The notes beneath the pieces are model-generated. The model ran no database searches, was not told the DNA's origin, and worked only from the letters and a program-made list of their open reading frames with translations. 56,418 bases of DNA, from positions 1 through 56,418 of IMG/VR virus record IMGVR_UViG_3300043296_000188. One strand, given 5' to 3'. The translations under genes were made by a program, and so were the position numbers. This DNA is from a virus. Lineage: Duplodnaviria; Caudoviricetes. Shown piece after piece: positions 7,228 to 43,923 of this stretch (position 1 is the stretch's first letter; the number at the start of each line of letters is the position of its first letter).

Positions 7228-7463
7228 TACACACCTCCCAACGGACCAGACATTACTACACCATTAACAGAATTCCGCACATCAGCAGTTATCGTGTAGA
7301 CATTCTCACTTATGGGGGAATTGCCGGAAACGTGGTCAACTAAATTAGGTGGATCAACAAAGAAACTGTATTTTGAAAAATCTGTTCCTATAACCGATAT
7401 CCCACCCCCACCAACAGATATTCCGTTTAAAATGCTTATCCCTTTTTCTCCTACCTTAACCAT
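7227..7463 (-). CDS. Short virion protein with Gly-rich GISV repeats
   Basis: GISILNGISVGGGGISVIG; TAATG coupling to the spike gene. Confidence 0.55.
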   Translation of the reverse strand: MVKVGEKGISILNGISVGGGGISVIGTDFSKYSFFVDPPNLVDHVSGNSPISENVYTITADVRNSVNGVVMSGPLGGV

Positions 7464-7690
7464 TGTTTACACCATGTTATTATTGGTTCTTGGTAATATA
7501 CTAAAAGCCATAGAAGTGAAAGCCAAAATAGTTTCCAATTATGTTCTTTATACCTAAAAAATCTTGTTGGGAAGAAATGATTATCATGTATTAGTTTTTT
7601 AAATTTCTTACCAGCGAATAAATAACAAGCAGTGAATAAAACATGGAAAACAAAAATACTCGTTAATACGGTGATATATTTTTCTATCAT
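7451..7690 (-). CDS. Small two-TM membrane protein
   Basis: Two hydrophobic aromatic-rich segments; ATGA coupling. Confidence 0.55.
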   Translation of the reverse strand: MIEKYITVLTSIFVFHVLFTACYLFAGKKFKKLIHDNHFFPTRFFRYKEHNWKLFWLSLLWLLVYYQEPIITWCKQWLR

Positions 7691-8976
7691 GGTGAGAATA
7701 CCCTCCCCTGACCTTTCATAATAAGTGTAATTAAATCAGTTAAATCATCTTGAACTAAAGCTTCCATCTTTTGTATTGGAGATGCATCTCCATTCAATTC
7801 TGCTACTACTTCAGATTTGGTAAATGTCCATCGCCCGTTAACTCCATGATTACCAGCGGGTGCTTTATCTGTATAGGAAACATCATACATATCAAGCTTC
7901 ATATCACCATTATTTTTCCAGTTAGCAAACACCACTGTTCGACCAGCTTCTGTTGTAGCCCGTAAAGAAAGGCCATTTGTTAAAGCAGCCATACCACCAA
8001 ATTTTCCGTCATCTGGAGCGGTGGCATCTGTAATAGAAAATAAAATTCTTGTTAATTGCCAAATAGTTAATGGAGGCGGATCTATTTCAAATATTTCTGG
8101 ATTTGCTAAAGTGCCAACAACAGCCATATTAGTTGTAACTTCATCTATCTCAGCAGCTACCGTATAGTCATTTCCAATAGGACGATCGAGAGTAACTACT
8201 AAAGCAGTAATATCAGTAATAGTTATTAATCCTATTTCTTGAGTACCATTTTCTCTTAATTTGATTTCACTCCCTTCAGCAAAGCCAGCAACGGAAGTAA
8301 AATTAATAGATGTGTCACCCTCACTTATTGGAGAACTTGGTGTGGTTGTAGTTCCTGTATGTTGATGAAATGTTTCATTAACTATTTTACGGTGTACCCA
8401 AGCTTTATTTATATTAAGAGCTTCTCGATAAGAGGTTATGTTTTCAAAATTACCAGTTAAATCACTTTTAGCTTTATTAACATTAGTTACAAGCTCAGCA
8501 TCATCTTCATCAATTATACTATCTTGTATTCTATGACTTGATGGTTTAACATAATCAGACTTTAATTGTACCTCAAGGTCAAAGAATGTCTGAATAATTC
8601 CACCGTTTGTATATGTTACTCGCATATAACGACCAGCAGGTTGAAAACTGAATGTTTTGCCTTTATTTGCTGGAATAGTAAATTCATCAGTATTTATCAC
8701 ATCAGATTCGTTAGGGCTAAATTCAACTTTTAAGCCATCGGTAGCACTTGCCACGTTAGATTTAACACCAATAATTATTGAACTAAATTGAAGTATCTCT
8801 ATCCATTCACCTATAAAAGGTTCATCTGGATCTAATATTTCTGAAGATGAATTTTCGACAGAAATAAAACTATACTCTCTCACAGGTAATGGGTTCTGAA
8901 CATTAACTACCTGCCTATCTCCTGAATCATCTTCATACCCAAGCTTACCACTACCCGTCTGAATTTGTATAACCAT
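7687..8976 (-). CDS. Virion structural protein (beta-rich, multi-domain)
   Basis: 429 aa, acidic and beta-rich, located in tail region. Confidence 0.6.
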   Translation of the reverse strand: MVIQIQTGSGKLGYEDDSGDRQVVNVQNPLPVREYSFISVENSSSEILDPDEPFIGEWIEILQFSSIIIGVKSNVASATDGLKVEFSPNESDVINTDEFTIPANKGKTFSFQPAGRYMRVTYTNGGIIQTFFDLEVQLKSDYVKPSSHRIQDSIIDEDDAELVTNVNKAKSDLTGNFENITSYREALNINKAWVHRKIVNETFHQHTGTTTTPSSPISEGDTSINFTSVAGFAEGSEIKLRENGTQEIGLITITDITALVVTLDRPIGNDYTVAAEIDEVTTNMAVVGTLANPEIFEIDPPPLTIWQLTRILFSITDATAPDDGKFGGMAALTNGLSLRATTEAGRTVVFANWKNNGDMKLDMYDVSYTDKAPAGNHGVNGRWTFTKSEVVAELNGDASPIQKMEALVQDDLTDLITLIMKGQGRVFSP

Positions 8977-16412: not shown

Positions 16413-17506
16413 TACTGGTGACTCTTTATTAATTTAGGAGGTGCTATCTCGCCAACTTTCTTGCCGGTATCATCGCGAACATTTAACTCATCAATATATA
16501 AAAGGCTCCCATCTGTATCGTATTTAATTTGCCAACCTTTAATATCTGCATCATACTGCGCCCCAAATCGCTTTTTCTGCTGTGATTTTTCTGACGGTGT
16601 GGAACCAAAGCCTTCATCCGATTTTGTCCATTCTTTCATTTGGGCTGTTACATCTTTTCGTTTTGCGATTCGATCCTTTTTAATAATATCAACAGGTGTT
16701 TTCCCGGCTGCTCTTGTTTTAGTCTTGCCTTTTCCAGTGCCTTTTATAAGAATTCCGCCTTCAAATACCGATACATCGCCTTGATCATTTGTAACTAATC
16801 TGATCCCACTTGGTTTCTTCACTGTTTTGCCAACCCCAGAGCCTTTGATTAATTTTCCATTTTCAAACACGGAAACATTGCCTTGATCGTCTTGAACAAA
16901 ATGATGTGACGGTTTAACTGGTGCCCTGCCAAGTTGCTTAAATTCTCTGGTTGATTCTACCCTTGTAAAAGGTTTACCAGTTGCCGGATTAATTTCTTTC
17001 ATTCTCGCACCAATAAAAGCCTCTGACTCACTTGGTTTAGGAAGTCTTTTTGCTTTTTCTATTTGTGCCCTTGTTAAGTCTCGGCCCAATGCGCCTCTTT
17101 CAAATACACGTTCTTCTTTTGCTAAAGCTTCTTTTTTTCTGACAGCTTCAGATCCTATTGCTGATATAGCACCACCAACTCTGCCCTGAACTGTTCCTGG
17201 GGCAATGGCTTGGGCTAATAATCCAGCTATAGAGGCGAATTTATCTGCATCAAATTGTCTTGGCTGTTTAGCAACACCTGAAACTCTCGCGGTTCCTGCC
17301 GGTCTGATTGTATTTCCTGCAAAACTTGGTGTCCTGCCAGGTGTTTGCGGAGTTTTAAGCAATGATGCTAATTTAAACATATCTGTTTGCTTTACAGCAC
17401 TTGTTTGTATTGGTGTAGTTTCTATCGGAGCAACATTTGGAATGGTTGCAGGAATAGTCGTTGTTCTTGTTCTTCTTTGCCCTAATGGTGTTAATCTAGT
17501 TACCAT
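16412..17506 (-). CDS. DNA ejection / internal virion protein
   Basis: Basic, low-complexity; two DQG(N/D)VSVFE.G.LIKG.G repeats; position. Confidence 0.55.
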   Translation of the reverse strand: MVTRLTPLGQRRTRTTTIPATIPNVAPIETTPIQTSAVKQTDMFKLASLLKTPQTPGRTPSFAGNTIRPAGTARVSGVAKQPRQFDADKFASIAGLLAQAIAPGTVQGRVGGAISAIGSEAVRKKEALAKEERVFERGALGRDLTRAQIEKAKRLPKPSESEAFIGARMKEINPATGKPFTRVESTREFKQLGRAPVKPSHHFVQDDQGNVSVFENGKLIKGSGVGKTVKKPSGIRLVTNDQGDVSVFEGGILIKGTGKGKTKTRAAGKTPVDIIKKDRIAKRKDVTAQMKEWTKSDEGFGSTPSEKSQQKKRFGAQYDADIKGWQIKYDTDGSLLYIDELNVRDDTGKKVGEIAPPKLIKSHQ

Positions 17507-17518
17507 ATTAATCTCCTA

Positions 17519-18385
17519 TTAAACAAATGCCGAAGCAAGACCGACTGCTCCACCTATAACCGCGCCCCAAGCTGTCCCTAAAACAGGAACTGCACTACCA
17601 ATCTTTGCTCCAACAGCCGCACCGGATAATGTACCGCTTAATGCTTTTTGTGCTGTTGATGAACCTGCAACCCCACCCGATGAATTTCTTGCACCCTGTA
17701 ATGCTGCTAATGCCGATCTTTCAAAATCAAGAACCGTGAAAGGCCATAATTTATCTTTTGTGGTAAGCGTGTAGTTATAATCGTCAACATCCATTTTTGC
17801 AGTAAAGTAAAGCTTCATAATTTCTGCATAATTCATTACAACACTTCCATTCCAACCAAGATGAGACTTCCATCTATCCACTGCAACCGGAATCATTCTA
17901 AACTTTAACTCAGAGCTAAATCTTTCCACTGCTTTAGTTCTTCCGTCTAATAATACAGCCTTTCCAACAACAAAAGAATCATTTTGAACAGCGTTTAAAT
18001 CTCTCGCTCCAAGAGTAAAATTAGACAGAACATTTGCATTAAAATCATCATCAAGTAAAGCAGTTTCAGCGGCTACAAGATTATTTATCTCGGGTGAATT
18101 AACCGTATCTTCAAATATTTGAGAAAATAAAACATCGATATCAAGTCCGGCCATAAACTTTCCGAACATATCATACAAGCTTGGATAACTGGCTATCACA
18201 AAACTTGCACCGAAAAAAGCATCATCAATTTCTATATCGGTATTCCCGGCAAATGGAGAATCCGCGGCAATACTTATCCGTTGTAACTGAACTTCATCTA
18301 AAAAACTCTGATGCTTGCTTTCTATATACGGGGCATAGCGTATCTCATTCCGCTGATCACCACCACTACTTGATCCACCACCCAT
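17519..18385 (-). CDS. DNA ejection (pilot-like) protein
   Basis: MGGGSSSGG start behind GGAGG; C-terminal Gly/Ala-rich hydrophobic hairpin GAAVGAKIG...GAVIGGAVG. Confidence 0.65.
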   Translation of the reverse strand: MGGGSSSGGDQRNEIRYAPYIESKHQSFLDEVQLQRISIAADSPFAGNTDIEIDDAFFGASFVIASYPSLYDMFGKFMAGLDIDVLFSQIFEDTVNSPEINNLVAAETALLDDDFNANVLSNFTLGARDLNAVQNDSFVVGKAVLLDGRTKAVERFSSELKFRMIPVAVDRWKSHLGWNGSVVMNYAEIMKLYFTAKMDVDDYNYTLTTKDKLWPFTVLDFERSALAALQGARNSSGGVAGSSTAQKALSGTLSGAAVGAKIGSAVPVLGTAWGAVIGGAVGLASAFV

Positions 18386-18386
18386 G

Positions 18387-18824
18387 TTACCCTCCAAATC
18401 TAAAGTCTAATCGTCTGTGCCTTTCCTTGAAGCCATAAAGACTTGCAAGCTCTAAGATTTTTTCATTCTTTGATGTAAATGAAATATATGAACATTTTTC
18501 TTTTTTGGAAAAATCAATTGCGTATTGCATATTTTCTGCCCAATCTTTATCACTTGCTACTTCAAATGCATAATAAGACTGAAGCAGTAAATATTTTTCT
18601 TTTGTGAACTGATCTATTAAAAGCCTGGTTATAATAACAGCTTTGATTTTTGTTTGTTTTTCATTCACTCTAAAGAAGCATTGAGCCTTGTTTGATAATA
18701 AAGCGTGAAGCAATTCGTTTAAGTATGGTTCCAATCCATGCTCTATTCCATCTGCTTGAGTAGATGCGTATTTTATAATTTCCCAGACTTTAGGGATTTT
18801 ATTTAAAAGTACTTGAGTAATCAT
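18387..18824 (-). CDS. GNAT-like podovirus protein (P22 gp14-like position)
   Basis: F.KKEKCSYISF...L...YGFKE pattern; lies between nozzle and ejection genes. Confidence 0.5.
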   Translation of the reverse strand: MITQVLLNKIPKVWEIIKYASTQADGIEHGLEPYLNELLHALLSNKAQCFFRVNEKQTKIKAVIITRLLIDQFTKEKYLLLQSYYAFEVASDKDWAENMQYAIDFSKKEKCSYISFTSKNEKILELASLYGFKERHRRLDFRFGG

Positions 18825-18832
18825 ATTTTTTC

Positions 18833-19957
18833 CTAATAAGCTAAAATTTCACCGTTAACATTAATATAATCTGCTTCAAAATAATCATATTCTGGAACTC
18901 TATAACCAAATTGAAATTCCGTACCGTAGCAAGGTATCCATGCCTGACCTCTATCATCAACATTATACCAACCTGTTTGAGTGAATGCGCTTGCCTTATT
19001 CTGCCTTAATCTGATAGCTGCCTGTATTGTCTCTGTTAAATCCGTGCTTATCTCAATTGAAAATATATTCTTGCCTTTCCTGGTTCCAAAATCAAAGGTA
19101 TCTGTCCATATCTCAAAGTCTGGTATTACAATAGCTGCCGGTGATGCAACATAAAGAACACCACTTTGAAAACCAATTCCGGTTACATTTGGTGGACCCT
19201 TGCCAAGAGATTGAGAATCAGGTGAATAAATATATCCTGTTGTTCCGTCACAAATATGGAGAAGGTTTTTTGATTCATCCAAAGTTAAAACAGGATTTGA
19301 CAAAGTTTCTAAAAATTCTTTATAATCAAGCTTAACCAAACCTTCACCTGTTAATTGATAAAGGTATCCAAGTTTATCAATAAAGTAATGAACAAAATCA
19401 GTGCCAGCAAATGCATCTCTACCAAGGAGTCCTATTCTGTGGATAGTATTTACACCCACCAATTTTCCTACCGGGCTAAGAATGGTAACTCCATTTTCAC
19501 CGTAACTGACTATTTTACTGCCGAGTTTCCGGGTATTAGAAACAGAACCTTTCCAATCTAACGGAGTGGCCCCTGCAACATTGTTCCGGTCTTTTACAAA
19601 AGAAAGTGACCCAACATCTGACCACGCCACCCAATTTTCTTGTAAGTTTAAAAGAGTTAATTCACCAAAGGCCGAGGCATATGCTGTGGCTGTTCCTGTA
19701 AAAACGGTACTTAATATAAGATCGCCTTCAGCCGAAGCAAAAGCAGTTGCAGTCGCCTCAAAATCAACAAAAGACTTTTCACCTGAAGCCGAAGCAAAAG
19801 CGAATCCGACGCCTTGATTCTGATTGCCGTCTCTGTCGTAGCCAAGACAATCAAAATAAATATCAAACTGGATATTGCGTGGCACTGGTGTTAGTGAAGA
19901 TACACCTTTTGCTACCGCATATGCCGTGGCTGTCCCGGCTTCAAATACCGTTGCCAT
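18833..19957 (-). CDS. Tail nozzle (gp10/tubular-B-like) C-terminal half, fused behind TATA(Y/F)A repeats
   Basis: NWVAWSDVG, YGENGV, HYFIDK.GYLY propeller-type blades; C-terminal DFGT..K...GTEFQF. Confidence 0.6.
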   Translation of the reverse strand: MATVFEAGTATAYAVAKGVSSLTPVPRNIQFDIYFDCLGYDRDGNQNQGVGFAFASASGEKSFVDFEATATAFASAEGDLILSTVFTGTATAYASAFGELTLLNLQENWVAWSDVGSLSFVKDRNNVAGATPLDWKGSVSNTRKLGSKIVSYGENGVTILSPVGKLVGVNTIHRIGLLGRDAFAGTDFVHYFIDKLGYLYQLTGEGLVKLDYKEFLETLSNPVLTLDESKNLLHICDGTTGYIYSPDSQSLGKGPPNVTGIGFQSGVLYVASPAAIVIPDFEIWTDTFDFGTRKGKNIFSIEISTDLTETIQAAIRLRQNKASAFTQTGWYNVDDRGQAWIPCYGTEFQFGYRVPEYDYFEADYINVNGEILAY

Positions 19958-20391
19958 TATTGATTAGTCGCGTTCTCAAATTTAGGATTTGTAATCGTAA
20001 ACGTACCACCGTCCGGTTCTGTTCCTTCTGTTCCGAAATCAACATAGAGTAGTAACGGATCATCGGCTACAGTATCATCCAAGAGAAATGCTCCGGGAGA
20101 AGGGCCAATATTGCCACCTGAAGCAGTCCATTGTGGGTTGGACCAGGTAACCGTTAATTTGAACAACGAATCATCCCTTGTGATTGAAATACCGGAAGCG
20201 TCAAGGGTTTTTTGCAGATACCCGTTCCCAGCCCCTAATTCTGAAGCAGAAATATCGGCATATTCATGATGATTCGCTCTGTCAAATACAAACCCGGTAT
20301 CCATTAGAATCCAAATAAGTGCATCCGTGTCGAGATCCACATCACCTTTTGCCATCAGGTATAAAATGTTTTGGCATACTTTAGTCGCCAT
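19957..20391 (-). CDS. Tail/fibre-associated structural protein
   Basis: DLDTD.L..ILM, EL..GNGY, WTASGGNIGP, YVDFG pattern common in phage tail accessory proteins. Confidence 0.65.
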   Translation of the reverse strand: MATKVCQNILYLMAKGDVDLDTDALIWILMDTGFVFDRANHHEYADISASELGAGNGYLQKTLDASGISITRDDSLFKLTVTWSNPQWTASGGNIGPSPGAFLLDDTVADDPLLLYVDFGTEGTEPDGGTFTITNPKFENATNQ

Positions 20392-20402
20392 AATTAACTC
20401 CT

Positions 20403-23378
20403 TTAATCTATGTTGTTTTTCTTATCATATGTTTGTCCTGGTAATGCCCAAACTTGAGGTTCATTGTCTGTATTTTGTTCTGGGAATGATGGTGCTGTCT
20501 CAAGACTTATACCGAAACTAATTGGTGTATCTCTTACAATATCAAGGTCTTCATCGAATGATGCTATATAATTTGTATTATTCCCAGAATCGAAAGAAAT
20601 CAAATATGATTTATTACTTTTATCATTGTAAGTTGATACAACTGATTTACTGCCAAATCTATTCACATAAGGAGTAGCAGAAATAGCCATACTTGGAATA
20701 ACTTCATTTGGATGATCTGGTGTATATAATCTTTCTAATCGACGTAACCGCCAAAAATTTGCAGAAGTATTCATATGTAAAATATAATAATAAGATGAAT
20801 TACCACCTAATAAATTTTGCATATATTCTAAATCTTGGATAAACATAGAAGGTGTAGCTTGATATATTTCCCAATCTGATACAGCCCTTGCAACGCCATT
20901 CAACGGATTAAAGGCTCTTTGAACAAATAAATAATCATACAATTCATCATATCTGAAAAAGTTTTGCCATTTGGCAGAGTCAGAGCCACCCTCTGTTAAA
21001 GAAACTGTTTTTCTAATATTAAAATCAAAATCAGAGTATGGATATTTAGCAGTTGCAAAAGGAACAATCCTTACATACGCCCAAGCAATTTCATTCAGAA
21101 GAGGATTTAATGAAATTGTGGCGATTGATTCATCACCATCACCAGTCGGGGTATAATTAAACTCTTTATCCAGTAATGTATGGTCAGCATCAAATCTTAG
21201 TATTCTTCCTGATATTTTATTTGTTGGGAAGAAAGCATAATCATCATTTCCAACAGCATCGTGGAAATGCTCCCCGGGCAGAATAGCACTGTGCAAGGAT
21301 GTGTTTATTATTGACATAACTTGTGAGGAAATATCTATTTCAACAAGCCTCAGATCGCCATTTGAATTATTTCTAAATAAGTACCATAGTTTTTTATAAC
21401 TTCTGCTTATACAGTATGCGCCTCGTGCGCCGTTTGTCACTGATCCATAACCTTGACTATAATCCAAAATATAATCAGCATTATTAACGACTAACATATC
21501 AACAACTTTCGGAGTCGATAAAACATCTATTTTTATAATAGAATAAAGTGCTACATCATAAACATAGATATAAGATCTATCACGTTCAGATAATGCAGCG
21601 ACCCATCTGCCTATGGGGGTTATTTCATTAGATATTACAGTTCCTGGTCTTGGGTTTTTATGCCAATGCCCGCAAGGTATATGTTTCTGAGTAGCGTCAC
21701 TTTCTGGAACCCACCTTGGATTATTAAGATAGCCCCATTTGTCCGGTTGCTCTGTGAAATTAAAACTATCTGGCCCAAGATTTCTAAATTCGTTCCATTC
21801 TTGAGCTTCGCTGAGTACATAATCATCACTTGTTATTTCCGAGTCGAGATAACCTGTGGCTTGAGCAATTGCTTTTAATGTTCCATTGAAGTTATTTATC
21901 GGTCCTGTATATTGAATTGTTGGGGTGCTGCCATCTATTGAGTATAGTATTGAACTCCCAAGAGTTGAGGATGTTATTTTTATTGTTACACCAATTGAAT
22001 AAGTTCCGCCAATTGGGTTAAATACTGGCTGTTCTGCTTGAGAAATAGTATAAGTTTCACTTACAACATCTGAATCAGTAAAAGCGGCCTTTATTCCAAT
22101 GGCTTTGATTGTTTTTGCTGAATCTAATGTAAAAGCTGTTGTAAATATTGGATCGCCTAAATCAGGAGTATCTCCATTTAATGTGTAATGAATATCCGCT
22201 TCATCTGTAGCGCAAGTCATTGAGATTAATTGTGTTTTTAATTTCTCGCCTGCTAATGGATCTATTACAGGAGTTGCAACAATTAATTCAACAAAATCCT
22301 CCATAGCAAACATATCATCTTTAAGGGAGTAATTTGTAGCTAATATCCAGTCTGCTGAACGTGCAAGGCTTATCCTAAACTCAGATATAACACCATCAAA
22401 TAGACTTGCTGCTGTACCCCTATTATTGAATGCCCCAAGGTACATGGGAAACTCAAAATTAGCCATATTATCTGGTGTATTTTGTGCGAAATAAGTGAAA
22501 GTCTGTAATACACCATCAAGATATACCTTAATTAAATTATTACTTCCATCTATATTTACTACGAGATAGTGTTCATTGCCATCAGTAATCCCGGTGTCAG
22601 TTTGTACAGCACCATTACAAGATGCTGTATCTTCGTCTCTCTGGTACACTCTAATTCTACCAGCCGATAGTGCAGAATCTTTATCTTTATTTAATTCGAT
22701 TAATAATGTGGTATTGGACCCAGTGTTTGCAGTTCCCATAACATCCATTATTGTATCAGTAACTGCTGATTTTACCACACCCTCAAAGATAGTATATTCT
22801 TGAGAATCAAGTGCTGATCCTAAATTACCAAGTGTCCCTATGCTAATAAAATCATCAACAATATCAAAATCCTGCCCATAACCTATTGAGCTTACAATTT
22901 GGATAGGTTCGTTTGCACCCTTTTTTGTACCATCATAAAAATTTTTGGCACTGTCCAACACCTCAGACGTTGTGTTGTCTACCATATGATGGACGCAAGT
23001 TACATCATTACCCCATACGGTAACAGAAGGTGCACTGGCAGTATCTCCGATATAGGTGGTATTCTCTGCAAATGTAGAATCATAATCAAGATAGAAAATA
23101 TCACCATCATCAATATCATCCGCTTTTACATGATAGACAACTTTACTGCTTGCAAAATCATAGCCTGGTTCAATCTCAGCCTTTAATTCTGTGACATGAT
23201 CTGATAGATATATTTTAACTTTCTTTCTATCTGCATCAGACATTTCATTAAAAAAGTTAACCCATGAAAAAGCATTAGTCCCTGACGATGTAGTAGCATT
23301 AAAAATAACAGGGAAATCCGTTTGAGCTGAATCAAATCTACTTGCTTGAACTGTTAATTTTATTATTCCTGCTGCCAT
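20403..23378 (-). CDS. Adhesin-like virion protein: DUF2341-like, LamG/ConA, two Fn3-associated repeats, C-terminal beta domain
   Basis: TDFPV..; DGNEHYL...VYLDG...FDGVISEFRIS..RSADWI (LamG); two IxY(T/S)xxGxxP...KAI repeats. Confidence 0.75.
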   Translation of the reverse strand: MAAGIIKLTVQASRFDSAQTDFPVIFNATTSSGTNAFSWVNFFNEMSDADRKKVKIYLSDHVTELKAEIEPGYDFASSKVVYHVKADDIDDGDIFYLDYDSTFAENTTYIGDTASAPSVTVWGNDVTCVHHMVDNTTSEVLDSAKNFYDGTKKGANEPIQIVSSIGYGQDFDIVDDFISIGTLGNLGSALDSQEYTIFEGVVKSAVTDTIMDVMGTANTGSNTTLLIELNKDKDSALSAGRIRVYQRDEDTASCNGAVQTDTGITDGNEHYLVVNIDGSNNLIKVYLDGVLQTFTYFAQNTPDNMANFEFPMYLGAFNNRGTAASLFDGVISEFRISLARSADWILATNYSLKDDMFAMEDFVELIVATPVIDPLAGEKLKTQLISMTCATDEADIHYTLNGDTPDLGDPIFTTAFTLDSAKTIKAIGIKAAFTDSDVVSETYTISQAEQPVFNPIGGTYSIGVTIKITSSTLGSSILYSIDGSTPTIQYTGPINNFNGTLKAIAQATGYLDSEITSDDYVLSEAQEWNEFRNLGPDSFNFTEQPDKWGYLNNPRWVPESDATQKHIPCGHWHKNPRPGTVISNEITPIGRWVAALSERDRSYIYVYDVALYSIIKIDVLSTPKVVDMLVVNNADYILDYSQGYGSVTNGARGAYCISRSYKKLWYLFRNNSNGDLRLVEIDISSQVMSIINTSLHSAILPGEHFHDAVGNDDYAFFPTNKISGRILRFDADHTLLDKEFNYTPTGDGDESIATISLNPLLNEIAWAYVRIVPFATAKYPYSDFDFNIRKTVSLTEGGSDSAKWQNFFRYDELYDYLFVQRAFNPLNGVARAVSDWEIYQATPSMFIQDLEYMQNLLGGNSSYYYILHMNTSANFWRLRRLERLYTPDHPNEVIPSMAISATPYVNRFGSKSVVSTYNDKSNKSYLISFDSGNNTNYIASFDEDLDIVRDTPISFGISLETAPSFPEQNTDNEPQVWALPGQTYDKKNNID

Positions 23379-26685: not shown

Positions 26686-27879
26686 CTATCCTATGATTCT
26701 TGTAGCGAATTCAGGATTTTGGCTTAATACACCGTATAGAATATCAAACCTCAACACTTCCTTATCCTCATCAATGTCATAAGCTTTGATCGCTCTTACG
26801 GACAATCCGTTATAAGATTCTCTACCACCCCATACAGCACTTGAAGGGATCTCAAGAGGTCGCATAGCGAGGGTAAATGCATCTTTATGAAATGCAAGGT
26901 TAATCGGGTAAGTTGTGGATTCAACACCCATCATTGTAATTACAGCCTCATTTGCAGGGCTGGTAGTAACAGTTTGATATGGACCCGATGTAATAATACT
27001 TGGAGAAATCGCAATATCCATGGCACCGGTAGTATCGGAAATATCAGCGGTTACAACAAATTGTCTCAAAATACCGGTTGACGCGCCAGTTTTGGGGTTA
27101 ACAGCATAAACATCGGCAACAGTGAAAACATCACCTTCGTTAAGATCGGCATTCCCGGAGTTCCAACCCTTTGTCAAGAGTGTGCCATCTGTCTGACTTG
27201 CACCATCAACTAACGGAGTTGACCCGGAAGTATAAGCACCTGTGATATGATTTTGGATGCTTTGGGCCATGTAGAAATCCATACCCGCCAACGCACCGAT
27301 AAAGCCCTTTGCAATAACATCATTGACATTCTTTTCATTAAACTGGCCTTTTAAGCCTTTTAAAGTTGCACCTTCAGCTTGAGGATTGACAACGGTATAT
27401 CTCATGTCAGTTGGAATAGCTTCCTCATTTAATCTGGTTCGTGCATCTGCATAAACATCAAATCCAGAAGGAGCAGTACCAGGAGTACCGACCTGATTAT
27501 GAATATCTTTATAAAGTGCATAAAGATCAACATCAACAGTGTTGGCCAGGGCAGATAATGCAGGTTTGATATATCTTTCGGAAATCCTGTCAATAGTGTC
27601 AGTCATTTCCTTGGTTGACCACTCAAACGATACATGCGCCTGAGTTGCAATGGTTAATGTAATATTAGATTCTGCAAGAGGGCTGTTTGTTCTGGATCTT
27701 GCTTTGGTTGCTCTAAATACGTTTGGTTTACGAATACCGAGGGTTTCACCGTCTTTGGTGAGTTTGTTTTCCCAGTCACGATAAACCATCTTTGCCATAC
27801 CAAGTTGATTCTCAAGCATTCTGAGAGATTCTTTGGTTAAAATTGTTGAACTAATTAATGTGTTGCTTGCAAAACTCAT
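26686..27879 (-). CDS. Major capsid protein (P22 gp5-like coat)
   Basis: KESLRMLENQL, GETL.IRKP, YIKPA..ALAN.VD.D, L.EGDVFTVA.V.AVNP, NLAFHKDAF.LA, RFDILYG. Confidence 0.92.
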   Translation of the reverse strand: MSFASNTLISSTILTKESLRMLENQLGMAKMVYRDWENKLTKDGETLGIRKPNVFRATKARSRTNSPLAESNITLTIATQAHVSFEWSTKEMTDTIDRISERYIKPALSALANTVDVDLYALYKDIHNQVGTPGTAPSGFDVYADARTRLNEEAIPTDMRYTVVNPQAEGATLKGLKGQFNEKNVNDVIAKGFIGALAGMDFYMAQSIQNHITGAYTSGSTPLVDGASQTDGTLLTKGWNSGNADLNEGDVFTVADVYAVNPKTGASTGILRQFVVTADISDTTGAMDIAISPSIITSGPYQTVTTSPANEAVITMMGVESTTYPINLAFHKDAFTLAMRPLEIPSSAVWGGRESYNGLSVRAIKAYDIDEDKEVLRFDILYGVLSQNPEFATRIIG

Positions 27880-27888
27880 GTTTTACTC

Positions 27889-28830
27889 CTAATATCTCCC
27901 ACTCCTTTCCTTGTCCTGCTTATCACGGGTTTTATTATATTCAGCCATCCCCATTTCATCTAAGGATTTAACTGACTCACCAGTGGTCGAAACAGGTTTT
28001 ATCGGTTTAGGAGCCGAAGTTGTTTTTTTTGGTTTAATTTTAATTGAAATACGTTGAAGTTCTGCGCCTGCTCGTGCGGCATCCATTTCTTTCAGGTCGT
28101 CCGCTTCGTCTGGGTTATTCCCAAGATAATAAGCAACATCTACAGCATTTTCCAAAGACTTAAAAACTGACAGGGTTGAAGTTGGAACCTCAAGATCTTT
28201 TATAACGACATCGAAGTCGTCATATTTTTCTGCGCCCTTTCCAAACGTCTTGTGAATTTCTTTAATACGTCCGGCTTCGACATCGTCAAGTTCTTGCTCT
28301 GTCTTTTTAGCTTTGGTTTTTTTGCTTTCTGCCTTTGTCTTGGCATCCCTGATATCAATTTTCCAATCTGTGAGGGCTTCGTAGAACAATTCATCTGAGT
28401 CGAAGTCATCAATGTTCGGTTTTTTGTTTGATACCGCCGCATTACGCAATTCTTCATTTTCTTTTTGGAGTTTTTCTAAATCGGATTCAGCAGTTTCACG
28501 CCTTTTAACTTCAGCATCAGTTAATCTTTCAGCATCCCGTCTTTTTCTTGTGAGCTTGCCTATCTTCTTCTGGACTCCTTGGGAGAACTCTTCACCTTCA
28601 TCTGGCTTCGGTTCTTCCTTTTTTGCCGGTTTTTCTTCTTTCTCTTTCGGTTTTTTCTCGCCGCCCTTGTCTTCAGGTTGGGTCGTGACCTGTTCTTCTT
28701 TCTTCGCAGGTTCGCTTACTTCCTGGGTTGCACTCTCAGCCGGTTGGATATTATCAACAGAAAAACTTTCCTCTCCTGTATCAATTACCTGTGTTAGCTC
28801 TTGTGCTGCGCTTGCTTTTGGGTCTGACAT
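27889..28830 (-). CDS. Scaffolding protein (start moved to ATG 28830)
   Basis: GVQKKIGKLT.KRR, KP..DDF....YEAL.DW, AYYLG.NP; AAAGGA RBS before MSDPK; the track's TTG start falls inside an RNA structure. Confidence 0.8.
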   Translation of the reverse strand: MSDPKASAAQELTQVIDTGEESFSVDNIQPAESATQEVSEPAKKEEQVTTQPEDKGGEKKPKEKEEKPAKKEEPKPDEGEEFSQGVQKKIGKLTRKRRDAERLTDAEVKRRETAESDLEKLQKENEELRNAAVSNKKPNIDDFDSDELFYEALTDWKIDIRDAKTKAESKKTKAKKTEQELDDVEAGRIKEIHKTFGKGAEKYDDFDVVIKDLEVPTSTLSVFKSLENAVDVAYYLGNNPDEADDLKEMDAARAGAELQRISIKIKPKKTTSAPKPIKPVSTTGESVKSLDEMGMAEYNKTRDKQDKERSGRY

Positions 28831-28879: not shown

Positions 28880-28918
28880 AAAAAAGCCATATAAACACAC
28901 AATGTGTCTATATGGCTT
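28880..28918 (-). terminator. Intrinsic terminator upstream of scaffold/coat genes
   Basis: Minus strand AAGCCATATAGACAC...GTGTTTATATGGCTT followed by a U-tract. Confidence 0.7.
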
Positions 28919-28996
28919 GGTTTTTCCAATACCTATGTTTAATAGCGGCCCGGCTCACTGATCAGGATATTGCCGGGCCTTTCTTGGGTTTTTAAA

Positions 28997-29632: not shown

Positions 29633-29986
29633 CTAAACCTTCCCGGCCTCACGAGCCGCATTAAATTCTTTCATCCCCATTTTGCCAAGCGATTTCTTTT
29701 GAGAAACATCAACCGCCTCAAGCTGAACCTCAATAGAATGATGATCTTTGCCACCTGTTCGCTCTGACATCCTGACTTCGGTTATCTTGCCAGTTCCATG
29801 GATTATTACAGTATCACCAACCTTTACGCCTTTAAAGCCGGGTAGCTTCTCGATCTGGTCTTTTTCAAATCTGAGTTGCAGGCCGTATGGGTATTTGTTG
29901 TGATCATCACCAACCATCATAGGCTCATTCATTTTCTTTAGTTCGGCCTTGGTCTTCTTTGGGATCTTCATGTCTATCATTTTCAT
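29633..29986 (-). CDS. Capsid staple-like minor head protein with scaffold-like C-terminus
   Basis: MIDMK, YPYGLQL...IEKL...VGD pattern; tail KSLGKMGMKEFNAARE. Confidence 0.65.
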   Translation of the reverse strand: MKMIDMKIPKKTKAELKKMNEPMMVGDDHNKYPYGLQLRFEKDQIEKLPGFKGVKVGDTVIIHGTGKITEVRMSERTGGKDHHSIEVQLEAVDVSQKKSLGKMGMKEFNAAREAGKV

Positions 29987-29991
29987 AGGTT

Positions 29992-30261
29992 TTATCCTTT
30001 CGTGTATAAATTCATTATATCTCTGTCAATAGTATCTGCCAAAGACTGAGCAGATCTTTCTATAGCCAATTGCATATGTTTATGAACTAATTGATTTTCA
30101 AGCATCGTTAAAGCTTCTTTTGCCACAACATCTGAACTGACAGGCATTTTATCAAATACAATTTTTCCTGGTATCTGCGGTAAAGCAATGCCCACAAACC
30201 CACCAATAGCACAACATGGAATAGCTGCACTTAAAAGTTTTATGAATTTACGCCTATTCAT
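29992..30261 (-). CDS. Tat-signal-like peptide fused to coat-protein fragments (mini-capsid 1)
   Basis: MNRRKFIK plus hydrophobic stretch; VSSDVVAKEALTMLENQL and LADTIDRDIMNLY match this genome's coat. Confidence 0.75.
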   Translation of the reverse strand: MNRRKFIKLLSAAIPCCAIGGFVGIALPQIPGKIVFDKMPVSSDVVAKEALTMLENQLVHKHMQLAIERSAQSLADTIDRDIMNLYTKG

Positions 30262-30418
30262 TATTTAAACCTTTCCTGTATTCAGAATCTAAAAAACATT
30301 TATTTAAAAGTTCTTCCCCTGTTTCCTCAGATAAAAGAATATCAATATCAACAGATAAACCATAATCCGCTGCACATTTAGGGTCCATCATCTTTTCTAA
30401 TTTCTCTGATTCCGTCAT
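30254..30418 (-). CDS. 54-aa acidic hypothetical protein (not in ORF track)
   Basis: ATGA coupling with portal stop; GGAG RBS. Confidence 0.45.
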   Translation of the reverse strand: MTESEKLEKMMDPKCAADYGLSVDIDILLSEETGEELLNKCFLDSEYRKGLNNE

Positions 30419-32433
30419 TCTCCTGCCCTTTCTTGTATAATCTCATTAATTAAAACTGAAATATCTTCTTTGGTTATTTTCTTCTTTTGATCATTGTCAA
30501 GTTTTATACCTTTAAGCCTTGCTTGTTCCTGTTCAAGTTTTACCTGGGCGGTATCGTTTTTAATTTGCTGCTCTTCTAACTCAGCCAGAATAAGTGGATC
30601 TTCTGGGATCTCTTCAGTTTCTTCAAACCCCGGCTGGACAAGCCCACCTTCTGTCTGAACTCCTTCTAAATTACCTTCTTGCACAAGATCGCTTTCTTCG
30701 TCAAGTTCATCTTCATTCTCAAGTAATTCAGGAGGAATAAGCTTTTTTAATCTCTGGGCAATATCATCTGCTCTATGGAAGTCTTGCATTTCAAAAAGAA
30801 GATCTGAAATAGCGGCTACGTGTTCGGGTGGTATTAATGGAAGAATTGTCGTAATCTTATCTTGAAATTCTTCTCTTTGAGTAGAATACGACCCTTCGGT
30901 TGTAATATCAACATCATACTTGCCTGTGGTTAGATTTATACCACCCTGTCCATTAACAGTTACAAGCTTTTCCTTCATGTCCTTGCCAAGAATTCTAAGC
31001 TTTGTTTCAAAATCATAAATATGAGGAATCATACCAATGATTATTTTACCTTCTGTGACTATTGCATCACTGAGATTATCAATATAAGCAAATTGTCCTG
31101 TGTCTATTTCTTGCTTTCTGCGTTGAAGGGCCACCCCGGAAGTTTCATTTGATTGTTTCCCTAACCCGGCTTTAGGCATTCCCATAGTATCTCTTATTTC
31201 TTCGTCGGATACTGCGAGTTGGCCTTGAGTTGCAGAGCTTGCCATGGCTGGTGATTCTCTGGTGGGTTTTGCATTAGGATGATCTTTTCTATATTTATAC
31301 ATTAAATAAGGTAAATTCTCGTCATTAGCCTTATCCCACTGTTTTTTATAATCATCCGTCATACAAACATCTGGCATTATGTAGGGTTGTTTCGGCTGCA
31401 ATGCTGTCGTTTCCGCGTCAATAGACCTAAAATAATTGTAAAGCCTCTGAGCATCCTTTGAATGCCTTGCAATACCTCTTGTTTCCAGCTTGCCATCAAC
31501 ACACAATTGTTTTCCCCATGTTAAAACAACCGGGAACATTGGTCCAGGTATACTGCCCTCTTCAAGTATTCTTTTTCCATCAACCTTGGCCCATTTGATT
31601 TTATATATTGGAACTTTCCTTGAATTTTTAAACTCTTCTGGTTTCTCAGCCACAACACTTCCATCGTCAAGTTGATAAAGCGTCCGTGTACCAACTTTAT
31701 CCTTATAAAAATATTCTGCAACCCTAACTTTGTCTTCTGATTGCCAGTTCGCGTATTCTGAACCATCTCGATCATAATCTACCGGAGTATAGTCATATTC
31801 TTCTTTATATGCATCTCTGCTAAGTTCTGAATCTATAAAAAAGAACATTCCATCCTGCTTATCATCCCTGATAGCAATTGGATCATACCGAACAGCAAAA
31901 GAATTTATGATACGCTCGATTCTTATTTCCTGCCTAAATAATGATTTTGGGAAGATATCGTCACCATTAGGTAATTCGTTCGTGATAAAATTGGTTAGGA
32001 TTCTCCAAGCACCTCGGCCCGAAGCCGCTGCATGTAATCCGGCATAAGAATGAACCTTTGTGGATCTGGAATTCCTCTGAATGTATCGTAAAAGCCCTTC
32101 AAGGACATCTGCCGTGTCTGGGTCGGAAACATCGTCAACAGCTTTTACTTTCAATCCTGGGGTGCTCAACCGGATATCACCGTCTATCTGATCGAGAGAG
32201 GTAGGCATTTTATTGATTGTGAGGGTTAGACGTTTATTTCCACGCTGATTTTTGACTGTATCTTCCCATTGATCCCCATTAATAAACCTAACATCATCGT
32301 TACCCTTTTTCCGTTCATCTTTTTCATTCTCAATTGATCTGTCAAAGCGTTTACGCATTAACACCATAAATGCTTCTTCTTCTGGGTTAACTGGCTTGTC
32401 TGTGGTTTCGCTGTTTTTCGGTTCATCTGCCAT
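30415..32433 (-). CDS. Portal protein (P22 gp1-like)
   Basis: GDQW, LTINKM, SGRGAWR, VRVAEYF, GIAR..KDAQR.YN, NETSGVAL..R, G.YDV.I..GSYSTQR. Confidence 0.92.
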   Translation of the reverse strand: MADEPKNSETTDKPVNPEEEAFMVLMRKRFDRSIENEKDERKKGNDDVRFINGDQWEDTVKNQRGNKRLTLTINKMPTSLDQIDGDIRLSTPGLKVKAVDDVSDPDTADVLEGLLRYIQRNSRSTKVHSYAGLHAAASGRGAWRILTNFITNELPNGDDIFPKSLFRQEIRIERIINSFAVRYDPIAIRDDKQDGMFFFIDSELSRDAYKEEYDYTPVDYDRDGSEYANWQSEDKVRVAEYFYKDKVGTRTLYQLDDGSVVAEKPEEFKNSRKVPIYKIKWAKVDGKRILEEGSIPGPMFPVVLTWGKQLCVDGKLETRGIARHSKDAQRLYNYFRSIDAETTALQPKQPYIMPDVCMTDDYKKQWDKANDENLPYLMYKYRKDHPNAKPTRESPAMASSATQGQLAVSDEEIRDTMGMPKAGLGKQSNETSGVALQRRKQEIDTGQFAYIDNLSDAIVTEGKIIIGMIPHIYDFETKLRILGKDMKEKLVTVNGQGGINLTTGKYDVDITTEGSYSTQREEFQDKITTILPLIPPEHVAAISDLLFEMQDFHRADDIAQRLKKLIPPELLENEDELDEESDLVQEGNLEGVQTEGGLVQPGFEETEEIPEDPLILAELEEQQIKNDTAQVKLEQEQARLKGIKLDNDQKKKITKEDISVLINEIIQERAGE

Positions 32434-32541: not shown

Positions 32542-32970
32542 CTATACTTTAACCATTAAAAGATCTATTCTGGCTACTATGCAATCCCAATTAATATCAT
32601 ATGCCTCTAAATATCTTAACTTAACGCCATTTTTTATAAAGTGTTCGCCTTTGTAAATATGCTTTGGTATAGCGATATATTTTGATTTATACCCTTTCCT
32701 AATATGGCTAATGTAATATTGTTGTAAAGATGCAATAGCCGGTTCCATAAAATTAGATTCAAATTCTTTGCTGCCTTTAGTACTTTTTAAGCTTTCAAGT
32801 TTCCAATTAACGTGGAATTGCTGAACATCTTTATACGGCATGGAATAATCAAAGATATCAGATTCTACAACCTCTGCGCTCTCAATCACTGAAGCTTTCA
32901 AGAAATTAGGAAGTAAAAATAATGAAACCCCTGATATTAGTGAGGTCTTAATAAATTGTCTTCTATCCAT
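32542..32970 (-). CDS. Tat-signal-like peptide fused to a minimised coat P-domain (mini-capsid 2)
   Basis: MDRRQFIK plus hydrophobic stretch ending LKA; two ungapped blocks match this genome's coat. Confidence 0.75.
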   Translation of the reverse strand: MDRRQFIKTSLISGVSLFLLPNFLKASVIESAEVVESDIFDYSMPYKDVQQFHVNWKLESLKSTKGSKEFESNFMEPAIASLQQYYISHIRKGYKSKYIAIPKHIYKGEHFIKNGVKLRYLEAYDINWDCIVARIDLLMVKV

Positions 32971-32982
32971 TTCTAATCCTTT

Positions 32983-34425
32983 CTACCTCGCCCACCCTCC
33001 AACACTGCTGGATGATCCGGGCATATTATTTTTAATTTGATCACCTGGCTTAACAATCGCTATGTCTATACCAGTAAATGTATAGTATCTGGTCCCATCC
33101 ATCAAGTGATCTTTTTCCTTGACGATATTTCCGTTTTCATCTCTCCGGTAAATTCTGAACTCACCTAACCAATTTTGGCAGCTTGAAAAAACCTTCATCC
33201 TGCCTGTACTCAACCGCATCCAAACTTTATGTATTCCTGATTCTACTGCATTTTTAGCCATTGTAAGATCTAAGCCAAGGTCAATATAATCCTGTAATAA
33301 TTGTTCTCCGTCTCGTTGCCCTCTGCCTCTTGACGCCGGGTCAATTGTCCCGGGTATCCATTCACCAGGGGCTTGAATCGCCTTTGCATGGATAACAGGC
33401 TCTGCTTTCCCCATGTAATGCTCATGATAGAGATAAGCACAGTCATTCTCTCGATCTATAGCACCAAAAATAGCAGCAGTTTTATTCCATCCCACATCTA
33501 ATCCATAAGATTTAGGCCAGTGTTCGGGGATCCTGAATGGTGGAACTATAATATCACTTTCTGTTATTGGATATATTGCACCTGATCCAAGTTGCGGTAT
33601 CCCTTTAGTTCTTGCATCCCTTTGATAAACCGGCAGGCTTTCATATAATTTATCTCTTTGTTCTTGAGTTAAATGGGGAGCATCGTCCCAGGTAGCCATA
33701 ATAACCTTTTTTGTACCGGATTCCTTCTCTTGAATCTTTCCACCTGGCATAAATTGTAAAACCGTTTCCGTTAAACCTTCCAGGGGAGTGAATGTAAAAA
33801 GAATATGCCCGTTTGTGGTCATTGTTCTGATTAAACACTCTAAATAGATATTTAACGGGCATTCTTCATCAAGAAGGATTATATCTTGCTCTGTACCTTC
33901 AAAAGATTTACGACCTTCTTTATATGCTTTGAATTTTAATCTGGATACTCCACCAGATGAATGTTTAACTAAAACAGTGTCAACAGCATCAGGCACGCCA
34001 GCTTTAGGCGTGGTCTTTGCTATTTTATCCCCAGGGATCAAACCAGTGCCTATATCTTCTTTCGGGCCGATTAGTTTATTTTGTAGAATATCACGAGTTG
34101 TTGTGCTGGTGGTCCCAGCCGCCCAGGATTTAATAGGACGATCATATCTTAAACCATCCCACCAATCGGGGTAATCACCGGTTAAATGCATCGTAAGTTC
34201 ATAACCGCCAACACCTTCAGTTTTTCCGACGCGATTAGCAGCCATCATACACCGTTCTGAATAGTTCTTACCTGCTGCGAAAAATTCCATATGTTTTGGA
34301 TAGTTGTGACGTGAAAGCTTGCCCTCTTCAGGGTAAAATGTTGAAATTTTATTTTGGGATTTGCGACGATCTTTTTCTTTAAGGAGAGAAAGGTATTTTA
34401 TTTTATCAGCTCTTGTCTGGCTCAT
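32983..34425 (-). CDS. terL: Terminase large subunit (P22 gp2-like)
   Basis: Walker A MAANRVGKT, Walker B ILLDEE, TFTP motif III, nuclease GLDVGW and DHLMD. Confidence 0.95.
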   Translation of the reverse strand: MSQTRADKIKYLSLLKEKDRRKSQNKISTFYPEEGKLSRHNYPKHMEFFAAGKNYSERCMMAANRVGKTEGVGGYELTMHLTGDYPDWWDGLRYDRPIKSWAAGTTSTTTRDILQNKLIGPKEDIGTGLIPGDKIAKTTPKAGVPDAVDTVLVKHSSGGVSRLKFKAYKEGRKSFEGTEQDIILLDEECPLNIYLECLIRTMTTNGHILFTFTPLEGLTETVLQFMPGGKIQEKESGTKKVIMATWDDAPHLTQEQRDKLYESLPVYQRDARTKGIPQLGSGAIYPITESDIIVPPFRIPEHWPKSYGLDVGWNKTAAIFGAIDRENDCAYLYHEHYMGKAEPVIHAKAIQAPGEWIPGTIDPASRGRGQRDGEQLLQDYIDLGLDLTMAKNAVESGIHKVWMRLSTGRMKVFSSCQNWLGEFRIYRRDENGNIVKEKDHLMDGTRYYTFTGIDIAIVKPGDQIKNNMPGSSSSVGGWAR

Positions 34426-34900
34426 TGAGTTTAGCCTCTAAAGCTTTAATTTGTTTATTTAGCTGTTCTTCTGTTAAACCAGTAATCTCTAAAGTTTCTT
34501 TAACTTCTTTCTTATCGGTAAGTCCTAAATCTCTGGCTATGATATTGGCGTTAAGCATGTCAGCAGCAGCCCCAGAGAACTTTTGATCATAAATAACCTG
34601 CTCTGCCTCGTGTATGACTTCTAATAAACCATCATCTTTTTTATAGTTATACCATGTGTCTTTTGAAATCTTTAGGAAGAACCATAACCCATTCAGAGTC
34701 ATTGCTCTCATCTTTGAAACGTTTGCTCTTGTAATCTCTCCACTTGCATGAAATACTTTTTCTTCTTGCAACGGATGATCTTCACACCATTGAAAATATT
34801 TCAGACATTCATCCCAAAACAATTTTGGAGAAGAGAATATTTTATTAGCTCCATGCTTTGTTCTAAACTTCCAGAACTCATTACCTGGTTGAAATACCAT
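34406..34900 (-). CDS. terS: Terminase small subunit (P22 gp3-like)
   Basis: GNEFWK.R.KHG, YFQW.EDHPL.E, KMRAMT..GL, QKFSGAAADMLNANIIARDLGL. Confidence 0.92.
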   Translation of the reverse strand: MVFQPGNEFWKFRTKHGANKIFSSPKLFWDECLKYFQWCEDHPLQEEKVFHASGEITRANVSKMRAMTLNGLWFFLKISKDTWYNYKKDDGLLEVIHEAEQVIYDQKFSGAAADMLNANIIARDLGLTDKKEVKETLEITGLTEEQLNKQIKALEAKLNEPDKS

Positions 34901-43057: not shown

Positions 43058-43384
43058 TCAAAATGGTATATCATCGTCTGGTATTGGTTGTTGGCTCTGC
43101 TGCTGGTTTGTTTGGCTATTCTGCTGGTTTGTTTGGCTATTCTGCTGATTGCCTTGTTGCAACCCATAAAACACCTTTGTATTCCCAAGTATCGGAGTTT
43201 TAACACCCTGTTCTTTTTCTTCTTTTGATACTGACTGGCTTATAAATCCATGATCACCGTATTCTGATTCATTATCCGTGTCAATAAAGGTTGTAAGATC
43301 GATATATTTCCCTTTCTTACCAACAAATATTCTTGACTTGTCAATTTTTGTAACATCAATTTTTATGCTAATTCCTAATTTCAT
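43058..43384 (-). CDS. Single-stranded DNA-binding protein-like
   Basis: Gln/Asn-rich linker (21-bp tandem repeat at 43100-43147) and acidic DDDIPF tail. Confidence 0.7.
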   Translation of the reverse strand: MKLGISIKIDVTKIDKSRIFVGKKGKYIDLTTFIDTDNESEYGDHGFISQSVSKEEKEQGVKTPILGNTKVFYGLQQGNQQNSQTNQQNSQTNQQQSQQPIPDDDIPF

Positions 43385-43923
43385 TTATTACCTCCTGGTA
43401 AAAGTTGTTTTAAATTTTCAATCGGTATCGTACCCGGTGAGCATTCAAGCAAAGCAACATCCTCTTTTTTATAATCAAGATAAGCCTCGACAAATTCTTT
43501 CCTGAACCATTTAAAAGTTGGATCTTTAACACTCTCTTGGTCAAGCTTTATAAATGACCATCTACGGGTTAATAAATGCTGTGTGATAGGATCATGGAAC
43601 TGTGCCACACATTCCCTACCAAGCCTACTTAAATTCCTTAGAACCTTATCACATTCAAGATTAGCAGTTATTTTTGTGTCTATCTTTCCTGATACTTTTT
43701 CAATTGCACGAATAATTTCTCTGGTTGTGGGTACGGCAGGAAATGTATTCTCACGATTCTTCAAAAGCCATGTTGTAGCTTTTGATATATCGTCAAGATC
43801 ATATTGTTTCAAAGCTTCAAATCTTACAACAAGACCGTCTTTAGACATTTCACCGCCGAAATCTTCAGCTAATCCATACATCCTAACGGCAAACGCTTTT
43901 TTTGTTTCAATATTATCTTTCAT
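43381..43923 (-). CDS. Replication protein, helicase-loader/P-like position (DUF6475-like)
   Basis: Follows initiator; ALK.Y....I..A, FP..P, F.DP, KWFRKEF..AY. Confidence 0.55.
   Translation of the reverse strand: MKDNIETKKAFAVRMYGLAEDFGGEMSKDGLVVRFEALKQYDLDDISKATTWLLKNRENTFPAVPTTREIIRAIEKVSGKIDTKITANLECDKVLRNLSRLGRECVAQFHDPITQHLLTRRWSFIKLDQESVKDPTFKWFRKEFVEAYLDYKKEDVALLECSPGTIPIENLKQLLPGGNK

Follow-up and report, generated by a model that had tools for sequence, protein, structure and literature searches.

A phage gene that joins a twin-arginine-type leader to two helices resembling those of its own coat protein

[quoted passage not shown] Our preferred reading, at a probability that we put at roughly 0.3, is that mini1 copies the site at which the scaffold docks on the coat, is targeted to Tat, and would capture proteins that dock there. 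A second gene of the same window and two genes of an unrelated phage, whose capsid protein is of another family, share the design; together they suggest a class of self-capsid mimics that has so far gone undescribed.

Results

Gene structure and the head module

The DNA analysed here (the window, 56,418 bases, 36% G+C) is a complete-looking, metagenome-derived IMG/VR virus record with direct terminal repeats. Among sequencing runs it was listed in one DNA data set, a marine sediment metagenome that may be its source, and in no RNA data set. Its head module lies on the minus strand in the order small terminase, large terminase, mini2, portal, o54, mini1, o117, three small ORFs, scaffold and coat (Table 1). 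The coat, 397 residues long, has no close relative in 50,697 cultured-phage records, where all 118 matching records fall below 60% identity (best 36.6%).

Table 1. Positions of the genes, gene parts and sites discussed in the text (window coordinates, except for the last two lines)
Feature	Position	Strand	Remarks
mini1	29992..30261	-	89-aa ORF; Tat-like leader and two coat-derived helices
mini1 residues 1-8	30238..30261	-	Twin-arginine motif M-N-R-R-K-F-I-K; TIGR01409 16.1 bits against a cut-off of 16.7
mini1 residues 9-27	30181..30237	-	Weakly hydrophobic h-region; Kyte-Doolittle mean 2.13 over 19 residues
mini1 residues 28-40	30142..30180	-	Pro/Gly-rich linker; AF2 pLDDT <50 at residues 15-38; length varies across the family
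mini1 residues 41-58	30088..30141	-	Coat N-arm-like helix; 11/18 identical to coat 9-26
mini1 residues 59-65	30067..30087	-	Short connector in place of coat 27-102; length differs between members
mini1 residues 66-87	30001..30066	-	Coat spine-helix-like helix; 8/22 identical to coat 103-124
Shine-Dalgarno-like AGGAAAGG	30270..30277	-	8 nt upstream of the mini1 ATG; read from sequence
o54	30254..30418	-	54-aa acidic ORF, translationally coupled to mini1
o117	29633..29986	-	117 aa; scaffold-like C-terminal tail, codons 29648-29695
mini2	32542..32970	-	142-aa ORF between terL and portal; Tat-like leader and coat P-domain pieces
Small terminase	34406-34900	-	
Large terminase (terL)	32983-34425	-	
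P22-type portal	30415-32433	-	PF16510
Scaffolding protein	27889..28830	-	PF09306 and phrog_8865; C-terminal docking-type tail
Coat, major	26686..27879	-	Source of the copied segments; PF11651 E=4e-46; phrog_283
Coat N-arm codons	27802-27855	-	
Coat spine-helix codons	27508-27573	-	
Two Tat-leader ORFs of G001	L077 10001-10264, 10991-11227		
Capsid protein of G001	L080 1243-2319		

mini1 is a real, conserved gene. Its start overlaps the stop of the upstream o54 by 8 nt, its end lies 5 nt from the start of the next gene, o117, and the identical protein is encoded on three contigs. For o54 itself no family or homologue was found in Pfam, in PHROG, in the related loci or among the 726 ORFs of L075, L076 and G001 (three further viral sequences described below). 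A promoter-like site (30014-30042, minus strand), which agrees with 11 of 12 consensus positions and is a consensus match only, precedes o117 and lies within the last part of the mini1 coding sequence. Readings of mini1 as a spanin, a holin or a lipoprotein were dropped because its sequence contains no lipobox and the part following the leader is short.

Several features of the surrounding genome were recorded alongside. Translation of the scaffold probably begins at the ATG at 28830, from which its N-terminus aligns with those of its relatives, and the longer frame that opens with TTG at 28929 probably goes untranslated; a strong terminator-like hairpin (28884-28918, minus strand; a 16-bp stem, then a T run) lies just upstream of the likely start. 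The large terminase is common to 65 other viral loci and is unrelated to the terminases of the related loci L003, L006 and L007, which are of another type (506-530 aa); judged by these sequences, the difference from the nearest coat relatives is a module swap, and it adjoins the mini2 insertion. Downstream of the head module (5170-8976 and 16412-23378, minus strand) lie five large ORFs of 685, 429, 364, 374 and 991 aa, for none of which PHROG gave a match at E<=0.001. A 2365-aa protein (9315-16412, minus strand) includes segments that are primase-like (residues 1228-1467), ParB-like and virion-structural-protein-like, and may be a large virion-borne or ejected protein.

Two segments of mini1 are homologous to the coat

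The initial annotation of this DNA had proposed that mini1 joins an N-arm-like helix directly to a spine-helix-like one, and BLASTP, shuffled controls and profile comparisons all bear this out. The N-arm match has a BLASTP E value of 3e-5; the spine-helix match, which follows after 7 residues, has a BLOSUM62 score of 37. The Smith-Waterman score of mini1 against the coat was reached by 0 of 2000 shuffles of mini1, and that of the second segment alone (mini1 59-89 against coat 27-397) by 9 of 5000. The best alignment of residues 59-89 to the coat is the collinear spine-helix one; a competing BLASTP alignment pairs mini1 64-80 with coat 82-98 (7/17 identical, E=0.014).

Profile methods agree. 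Compared by hhalign with an alignment of seven coats, mini1 matches in the N-arm at E=8.3e-6 (probability 83.5%), and the C-terminal part of its family, compared with the coats, aligns to coat 96-124 (E=9.9e-5, probability 58%). The strictest control was a hidden Markov model (HMM) built from five family members only, none of them from the window, and run on the window's 453 ORFs; it recovered mini1 at 9e-14 and the coat at 6e-6, with nothing else below 0.58, and matched the coat in two pieces, residues 5-27 and 90-124. Among 4426 ORFs of 73 related loci, the family HMM gave 22 matches at E<=0.05, every one a coat homologue, and thereby found 22 of the 25 coat homologues that these loci contain. 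The established profiles PF11651 and phrog_283 gave no match for mini1 or mini2 at E<=0.1.

These comparisons identify both segments as homologous to the coat N-arm and spine helix, and leave coat 28-95 and 125-397 with no counterpart in the 89-aa protein. Nucleotide identity between mini1 and the coat gene is 36/54 and 27/66 over the two segments, so mini1 is not a recent duplication of the coat gene; by the same comparison the likeness is old at the DNA level. A low-confidence AF2 model of mini1 from a 6-row alignment (pLDDT 62) draws residues 43-88 as a single long helix, not as a hairpin, and is uninformative on the hairpin fold.

A twin-arginine-type leader marks the mini1 family

The first third of mini1, which the initial annotation had passed over, is a leader and the most conserved part of the protein. 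The survey of homologues that the annotation had asked for, made by exhaustive and profile searches, yielded a family of seven distinct sequences: mini1, five proteins that we designate P0002, P0004, P0005, P0006 and P0007, and one protein shared by L075 and L076. They are 29-85% identical to mini1, and six of the seven have open frames of 82-97 aa, the seventh (P0007, 72 aa) being perhaps cut by the end of its contig. The contigs that carry P0002, P0004, P0005 and P0007 are 699-1572 bp long, and that of P0006 is 32.6 kb. Exhaustive searching without a length filter found no long fused form of mini1 at E<=0.001; further members were sought in viral contigs, in a metagenome scan and in genome contigs, and among cultured phages by tblastn with P0006 and P0005, and none were found. 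No Pfam, PHROG or NCBIfam family covers mini1.

Each member starts M-x-R-R-x-F-[ILM]-K, with R3, R4, F6 and K8 the same in 7/7, and continues into a stretch of weak hydrophobicity. The mean hydropathy of the h-region (Kyte-Doolittle, 19 residues) has the low value typical of Tat leaders, 1.04-1.75 in the other members besides the value for mini1 in Table 1, and a basic residue lies past it (K33 in mini1). Leader motif and helix positions are kept across the family, as are, invariantly, A47, E49, A50 and L51 of the N-arm-like helix. As criteria for a Tat signal we used TIGR01409 (cut-off 16.7 bits), PF10518 and the consensus (S/T)-R-R-x-F-L-K near the N-terminus. By TIGR01409, P0002, P0005 and mini2 score 14.8, 13.6 and 12.6 bits, and P0004, P0006, P0007 and the L076 protein have no match at E<=1; the Pfam TAT_signal matches are all below threshold. 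Because mini1 itself falls short of the cut-off and four members are unmatched, the assignment to Tat is based on the presence of a conserved motif and on no passed threshold. On that footing the N-terminus of mini1 is a twin-arginine signal pattern, and the protein is therefore predicted to be targeted to the Tat translocase rather than to act as a free cytoplasmic partner.

The leader motif and the coat likeness coincide within the window. Only 2 of its 453 ORFs, mini1 and mini2, carry the motif, and these same two are the best non-self matches of the coat (E=0.006 and 0.013; next 0.13). By our own arithmetic the chance that the motif carriers would be the two best coat matches is about 1 in 100,000. 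Among the 4426 ORFs of the related loci the motif occurs twice, both times spuriously.

A second leader and coat-piece gene in the window

The second motif carrier, mini2, starts M-D-R-R-Q-F-I-K and has a canonical-looking h-region that ends L-K-A before a likely cleavage point. Its residues 97-138 match coat 340-381 (15/42 identical, E=2e-5), and residues 50-82 align collinearly with coat 79-111 at a score reached by 65 of 3000 shuffles. The ESM Atlas's model of mini2 matched capsid-protein clusters over residues 35-142, at TM 0.49-0.54 in all eight rows shown, six of which are capsid-named or have capsid Pfam families, the other two being unnamed clusters that are 75-80% viral. A single-sequence AF2 model had a pLDDT of 45, and a Foldseek search with it gave 0 matches at E<=0.001 in BFVD and PDB, which at such confidence is meaningless. 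No homologue of mini2 was found. A third coat-like candidate in the window, the ORF at 43381-43923, was rejected at an hhalign probability of 7.5%.

The same design with another capsid family

The L076 protein led to a further IMG/VR contig, G001 (61,667 bases, 45.7% G+C, CheckV completeness 100%), whose capsid protein belongs to a family other than that of the window's coat (PF13252 Phage_capsid_3, E=4e-48). This capsid protein may also be described as Phage_capsid_3 / N4-gp56-like. Just upstream of the G001 large terminase lie two small genes, ORF A and ORF B, whose leaders score 17.6 and 18.6 bits in TIGR01409 and thus exceed its cut-off of 16.7. ORF A (87 aa) first matches capsid 238-263 (15/26, E=6e-7) and then the capsid N-terminus, residues 3-34 (15/32, E=4e-9), an order that is permuted with respect to the capsid protein. 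In ORF B (78 aa) the match is to capsid 247-272 (14/26, E=9e-9). Three of 612 G001 ORFs carry the motif, one spuriously, and the other two are ORF A and ORF B, which are also the two best non-self matches of the capsid protein (1.7e-6 and 5.6e-6; next 0.52).

The leaders of ORF A and the L076 protein are 47% identical over 43 residues. Related leaders therefore carry passengers that match the capsid family of the phage in question. Window and G001 alike have two leader and capsid-piece genes per genome. If this reading holds, the same design arose at least twice, with capsid proteins of two families.

Distribution and genomic context

No Tat-leader coat-piece ORF was found in any of the 73 related loci, and mini1 and mini2 are not needed for assembly, since all of these lack them. 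The nearest coat relative (L007, 89% identical) has the order portal, o117, small ORF, scaffold, coat, with o54 and mini1 both absent, and in L006 the order is portal, scaffold, coat. The homologue in L075/L076 lies among genes for an SMC-like ATPase and for nucleotide metabolism (thymidylate-synthase-like and dATP/dGTP diphosphohydrolase-like). The L075/L076 phage has a thymidylate-synthase-like protein together with a dATP/dGTP diphosphohydrolase N-terminal domain (PF18909), and these nucleotide genes may point to modified DNA bases. The patchy presence of the mini1-type genes and their varied context mark them, therefore, as mobile accessory genes and not core assembly genes.

Scaffold docking and o117

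In P22, scaffold residues R293 and K296 contact coat D14, E15 and E18 on the N-arm, and scaffold Y292 contacts coat R101 on the long P-domain helix; N-arm and helix together hold the C-terminal helix-loop-helix of the scaffold (PMC9965877; bioRxiv 10.1101/2022.12.13.520362). mini1 keeps exactly the two elements that match this docking site, the N-arm and the spine helix. In the alignment, mini1 E49 falls opposite coat E17 and mini1 E55 opposite coat E23, the two coat residues being invariant in seven coats; E49 is invariant in 7/7 mini1 members and E55 is kept in 6/7. As a group, these acidic residues are putative counterparts of P22 D14/E15/E18. A predicted complex of mini1 (36-89) with the scaffold C-terminus (255-313) scored 0.00 against a mark of 0.32 in a run without controls, and has no bearing on binding in either direction.

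The scaffold tail, K-S/T-L/P-x-x-M-x-x-x-E-Y-x-x-x-R, is kept in 7/7 scaffolds. The gene next to mini1, o117, had been said to end in a similar tail, and the likeness stands in position-specific and profile tests (9/16 identical, E=0.001; hhalign of family profiles, E=1.7e-4), the only tests that back it: when whole proteins were shuffled, the likeness of the two tails was not significant, 59/1000, 446/1000 and 257/1000 shuffles reaching the score. A tail of this kind also closes the three o117 homologues, and it is conserved in those of L003 and L007. Among the window's 453 ORFs the scaffold-type motif, which was defined after both tails had been seen, occurs only in the scaffold and o117. 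The tail of o117 may be a capsid-docking tag on a non-scaffold protein.

Over its core, o117 weakly resembles the capsid staple gp10 of bacteriophage epsilon15 (PF21628, 23 bits, below the curated cut-off of 27; gp10 chain 3j40_N, E=0.054); PDB 3j40 chain N we take to be that protein. A scaffold-like tail is not a described feature of this staple family (PF21628).

The proposal that o117 is the partner of mini1 finds no support in synteny. o117 occurs without mini1 in L003, L004 and L007, and the 726 ORFs of L075, L076 and G001 include no homologue of it; by gene content, o117 is not a conserved partner of mini1. The initial annotation thus stands in its joined coat helices and its o117 tail, and mini1 does have homologues; the pairing with o117 is unsupported, and the leader was overlooked.

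Discussion

Our comparisons lead us to propose that mini1 couples a mimic of the coat's docking surface to an export signal. The helical module would fold in the cytoplasm and present that surface, which would then bind scaffold-type C-terminal helices, be they those of the scaffold, of o117 or of similarly tagged virion proteins. The leader would bring the module, alone or with its partner attached, as far as the Tat translocase of the host or across it, so that mini1 might serve as a hitch-hiker or as a tether. Within this scheme we infer the hairpin fold, the binding of scaffold-type tails, actual export by Tat and a biological pay-off, and the candidate partners (scaffold tail, o117 tail and coat) are named by analogy. 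A Tat rather than a Sec signal would suit a passenger whose folding or partner binding precedes export. Hitch-hiking, in which a protein that lacks a leader travels with a Tat substrate, is established (PMC10924467, PMC4273604). No purpose in exporting or tethering scaffold-type proteins is evident. Docking may itself be too narrow a description, because ORF B and mini2 copy beta-strand pieces and not the N-arm.

The nearest known relative of the helical module is the P22-type coat (PF11651), with which mini1 shares the collinear N-arm and spine-helix segments that in P22 hold the scaffold. At 89 aa against 397, however, mini1 lacks the E-loop, A-domain, insertion domain and P-domain sheet and cannot, for that reason, build a shell; it has a twin-arginine leader where the coat has none, and the coat family profile misses it. 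The Tat hitch-hiker subunits, such as those of PaoABC and the small subunits of hydrogenases, are likewise small and Tat-leadered, and could carry a leaderless partner bound in the cytoplasm. By ESM Atlas features, mini1 and mini2 lie close to clusters of the TAT_signal and [Fe]-hydrogenase small-subunit type (0.84-0.85), a lead only. Unlike those subunits, mini1 has no cofactor domain, is encoded by a phage and carries a capsid-derived passenger, and its binding and export are predictions only.

Two groups of phage-related proteins also invite comparison. The superinfection-exclusion proteins of the envelope include T4 Imm and Sp, TP-J34 Ltp, HK97 gp15 and P22 SieA, and some of them bind an incoming virion protein. 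They resemble mini1 in being small accessory phage proteins of patchy distribution with an export or membrane signal, but their signals are of the Sec, lipoprotein or transmembrane kind and they are not capsid-derived, whereas mini1 belongs to the late head operon. The satellite SaPI1 encodes CpmB, a capsid-redirecting protein that copies the capsid-binding end of the scaffold and works inside the procapsid. CpmB, like mini1, is a small helical mimic of one side of the scaffold-coat interface; it copies the scaffold side, whereas mini1 copies the coat side and adds an export leader.

In another reading, possible if unlikely, mini1 would be a periplasmic trap of the exclusion or lysis-inhibition kind: an exported mimic of the coat interior that captures virion-internal proteins which incoming kin phages bring with them and which evolved to dock on this coat surface, superinfection being blocked or sensed in this way. 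Exclusion proteins are usually the products of small accessory genes that have a patchy distribution and encode an export signal, the genomic position varies and includes an early or nucleotide-metabolism region in L075/L076, and the passenger, in every case a match to the resident capsid family, is what would be expected if kin phages carried the target. The 2365-aa protein of the window, with its virion-structural-like segment, could be an ejected internal protein of this kind. Against the trap, the genes of the window and of G001 lie inside or beside the late operon of packaging and head genes, a late setting for an exclusion function, and the scaffold-type motif (a post hoc definition) is confined to the scaffold and o117 among the 453 ORFs. 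We know of no ejected protein that carries a scaffold-type tail.

Host defence offers a further setting. Sensors of the bacterial STAND/Avs type bind phage major capsid proteins by their conserved core fold (PMC13581612), and their existence makes it conceivable, though decidedly unlikely, that mini1 is an anti-defence decoy, its capsid-like pieces occupying the recognition site of a host capsid sensor and its leader removing or mislocalising the complex. Small, fast-evolving, patchy genes that match the phage's own capsid protein and are predicted to be co-expressed with it show traits typical of counter-defence. A cytoplasmic decoy, however, needs no Tat leader, and to our knowledge no sensor recognises such short capsid pieces.

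It is tempting to generalise from the four genes of the window and G001 to a modular accessory class, in which a shared Tat leader with swappable pieces of the phage's own capsid would evict capsid-recognising cytoplasmic proteins through Tat hitch-hiking, an idea that we regard as a long shot. Equally speculative is the choice of targets for such 'eviction by export': either sensors by which host immunity would detect the capsid protein, or proteins that dock in the scaffold manner.

The original reading, in which mini1 stays in the cytoplasm as a partner of o117 and the scaffold and regulates or chaperones head assembly, we now consider very doubtful. It accounts for the copied helices, which are those of the P22 scaffold docking site, and for a neighbour 5 nt away with a tail resembling that of the scaffold. 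It leaves the invariant twin-arginine leader unexplained; o117 is found without mini1 in three loci (L003, L004, L007), the L075/L076 homologue has no o117 neighbour, and the likeness of the tails was not significant in the whole-protein shuffle test (59/1000). That mini1 is a decaying, functionless relic of partial coat-gene duplications is hardly credible: mini2 has no homologue and the genes are missing from near relatives, but seven diverged mini1 members keep open frames, leader motif and helix positions, mini1 has tight translational coupling and a Shine-Dalgarno-like site, the design recurs in G001, and mini1 shows no DNA-level trace of recent duplication.

A search of the literature for Tat-leader capsid fragments found no description of them. 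If the docking-and-export reading of mini1 holds, the docking surface alone has been kept from a capsid protein, provided with an export tag and put to a new use outside the capsid. Such a protein would offer a minimal, soluble handle on scaffold-coat docking and a natural example of the use of Tat by a phage, and 'eviction by export', if true, would be a new principle of counter-defence or assembly control. More genes of this type may be sought by a simple rule, a Tat leader combined with a capsid protein as the best within-genome match. The finding bears on how phages handle those proteins, their own or their host's, that recognise the capsid protein.
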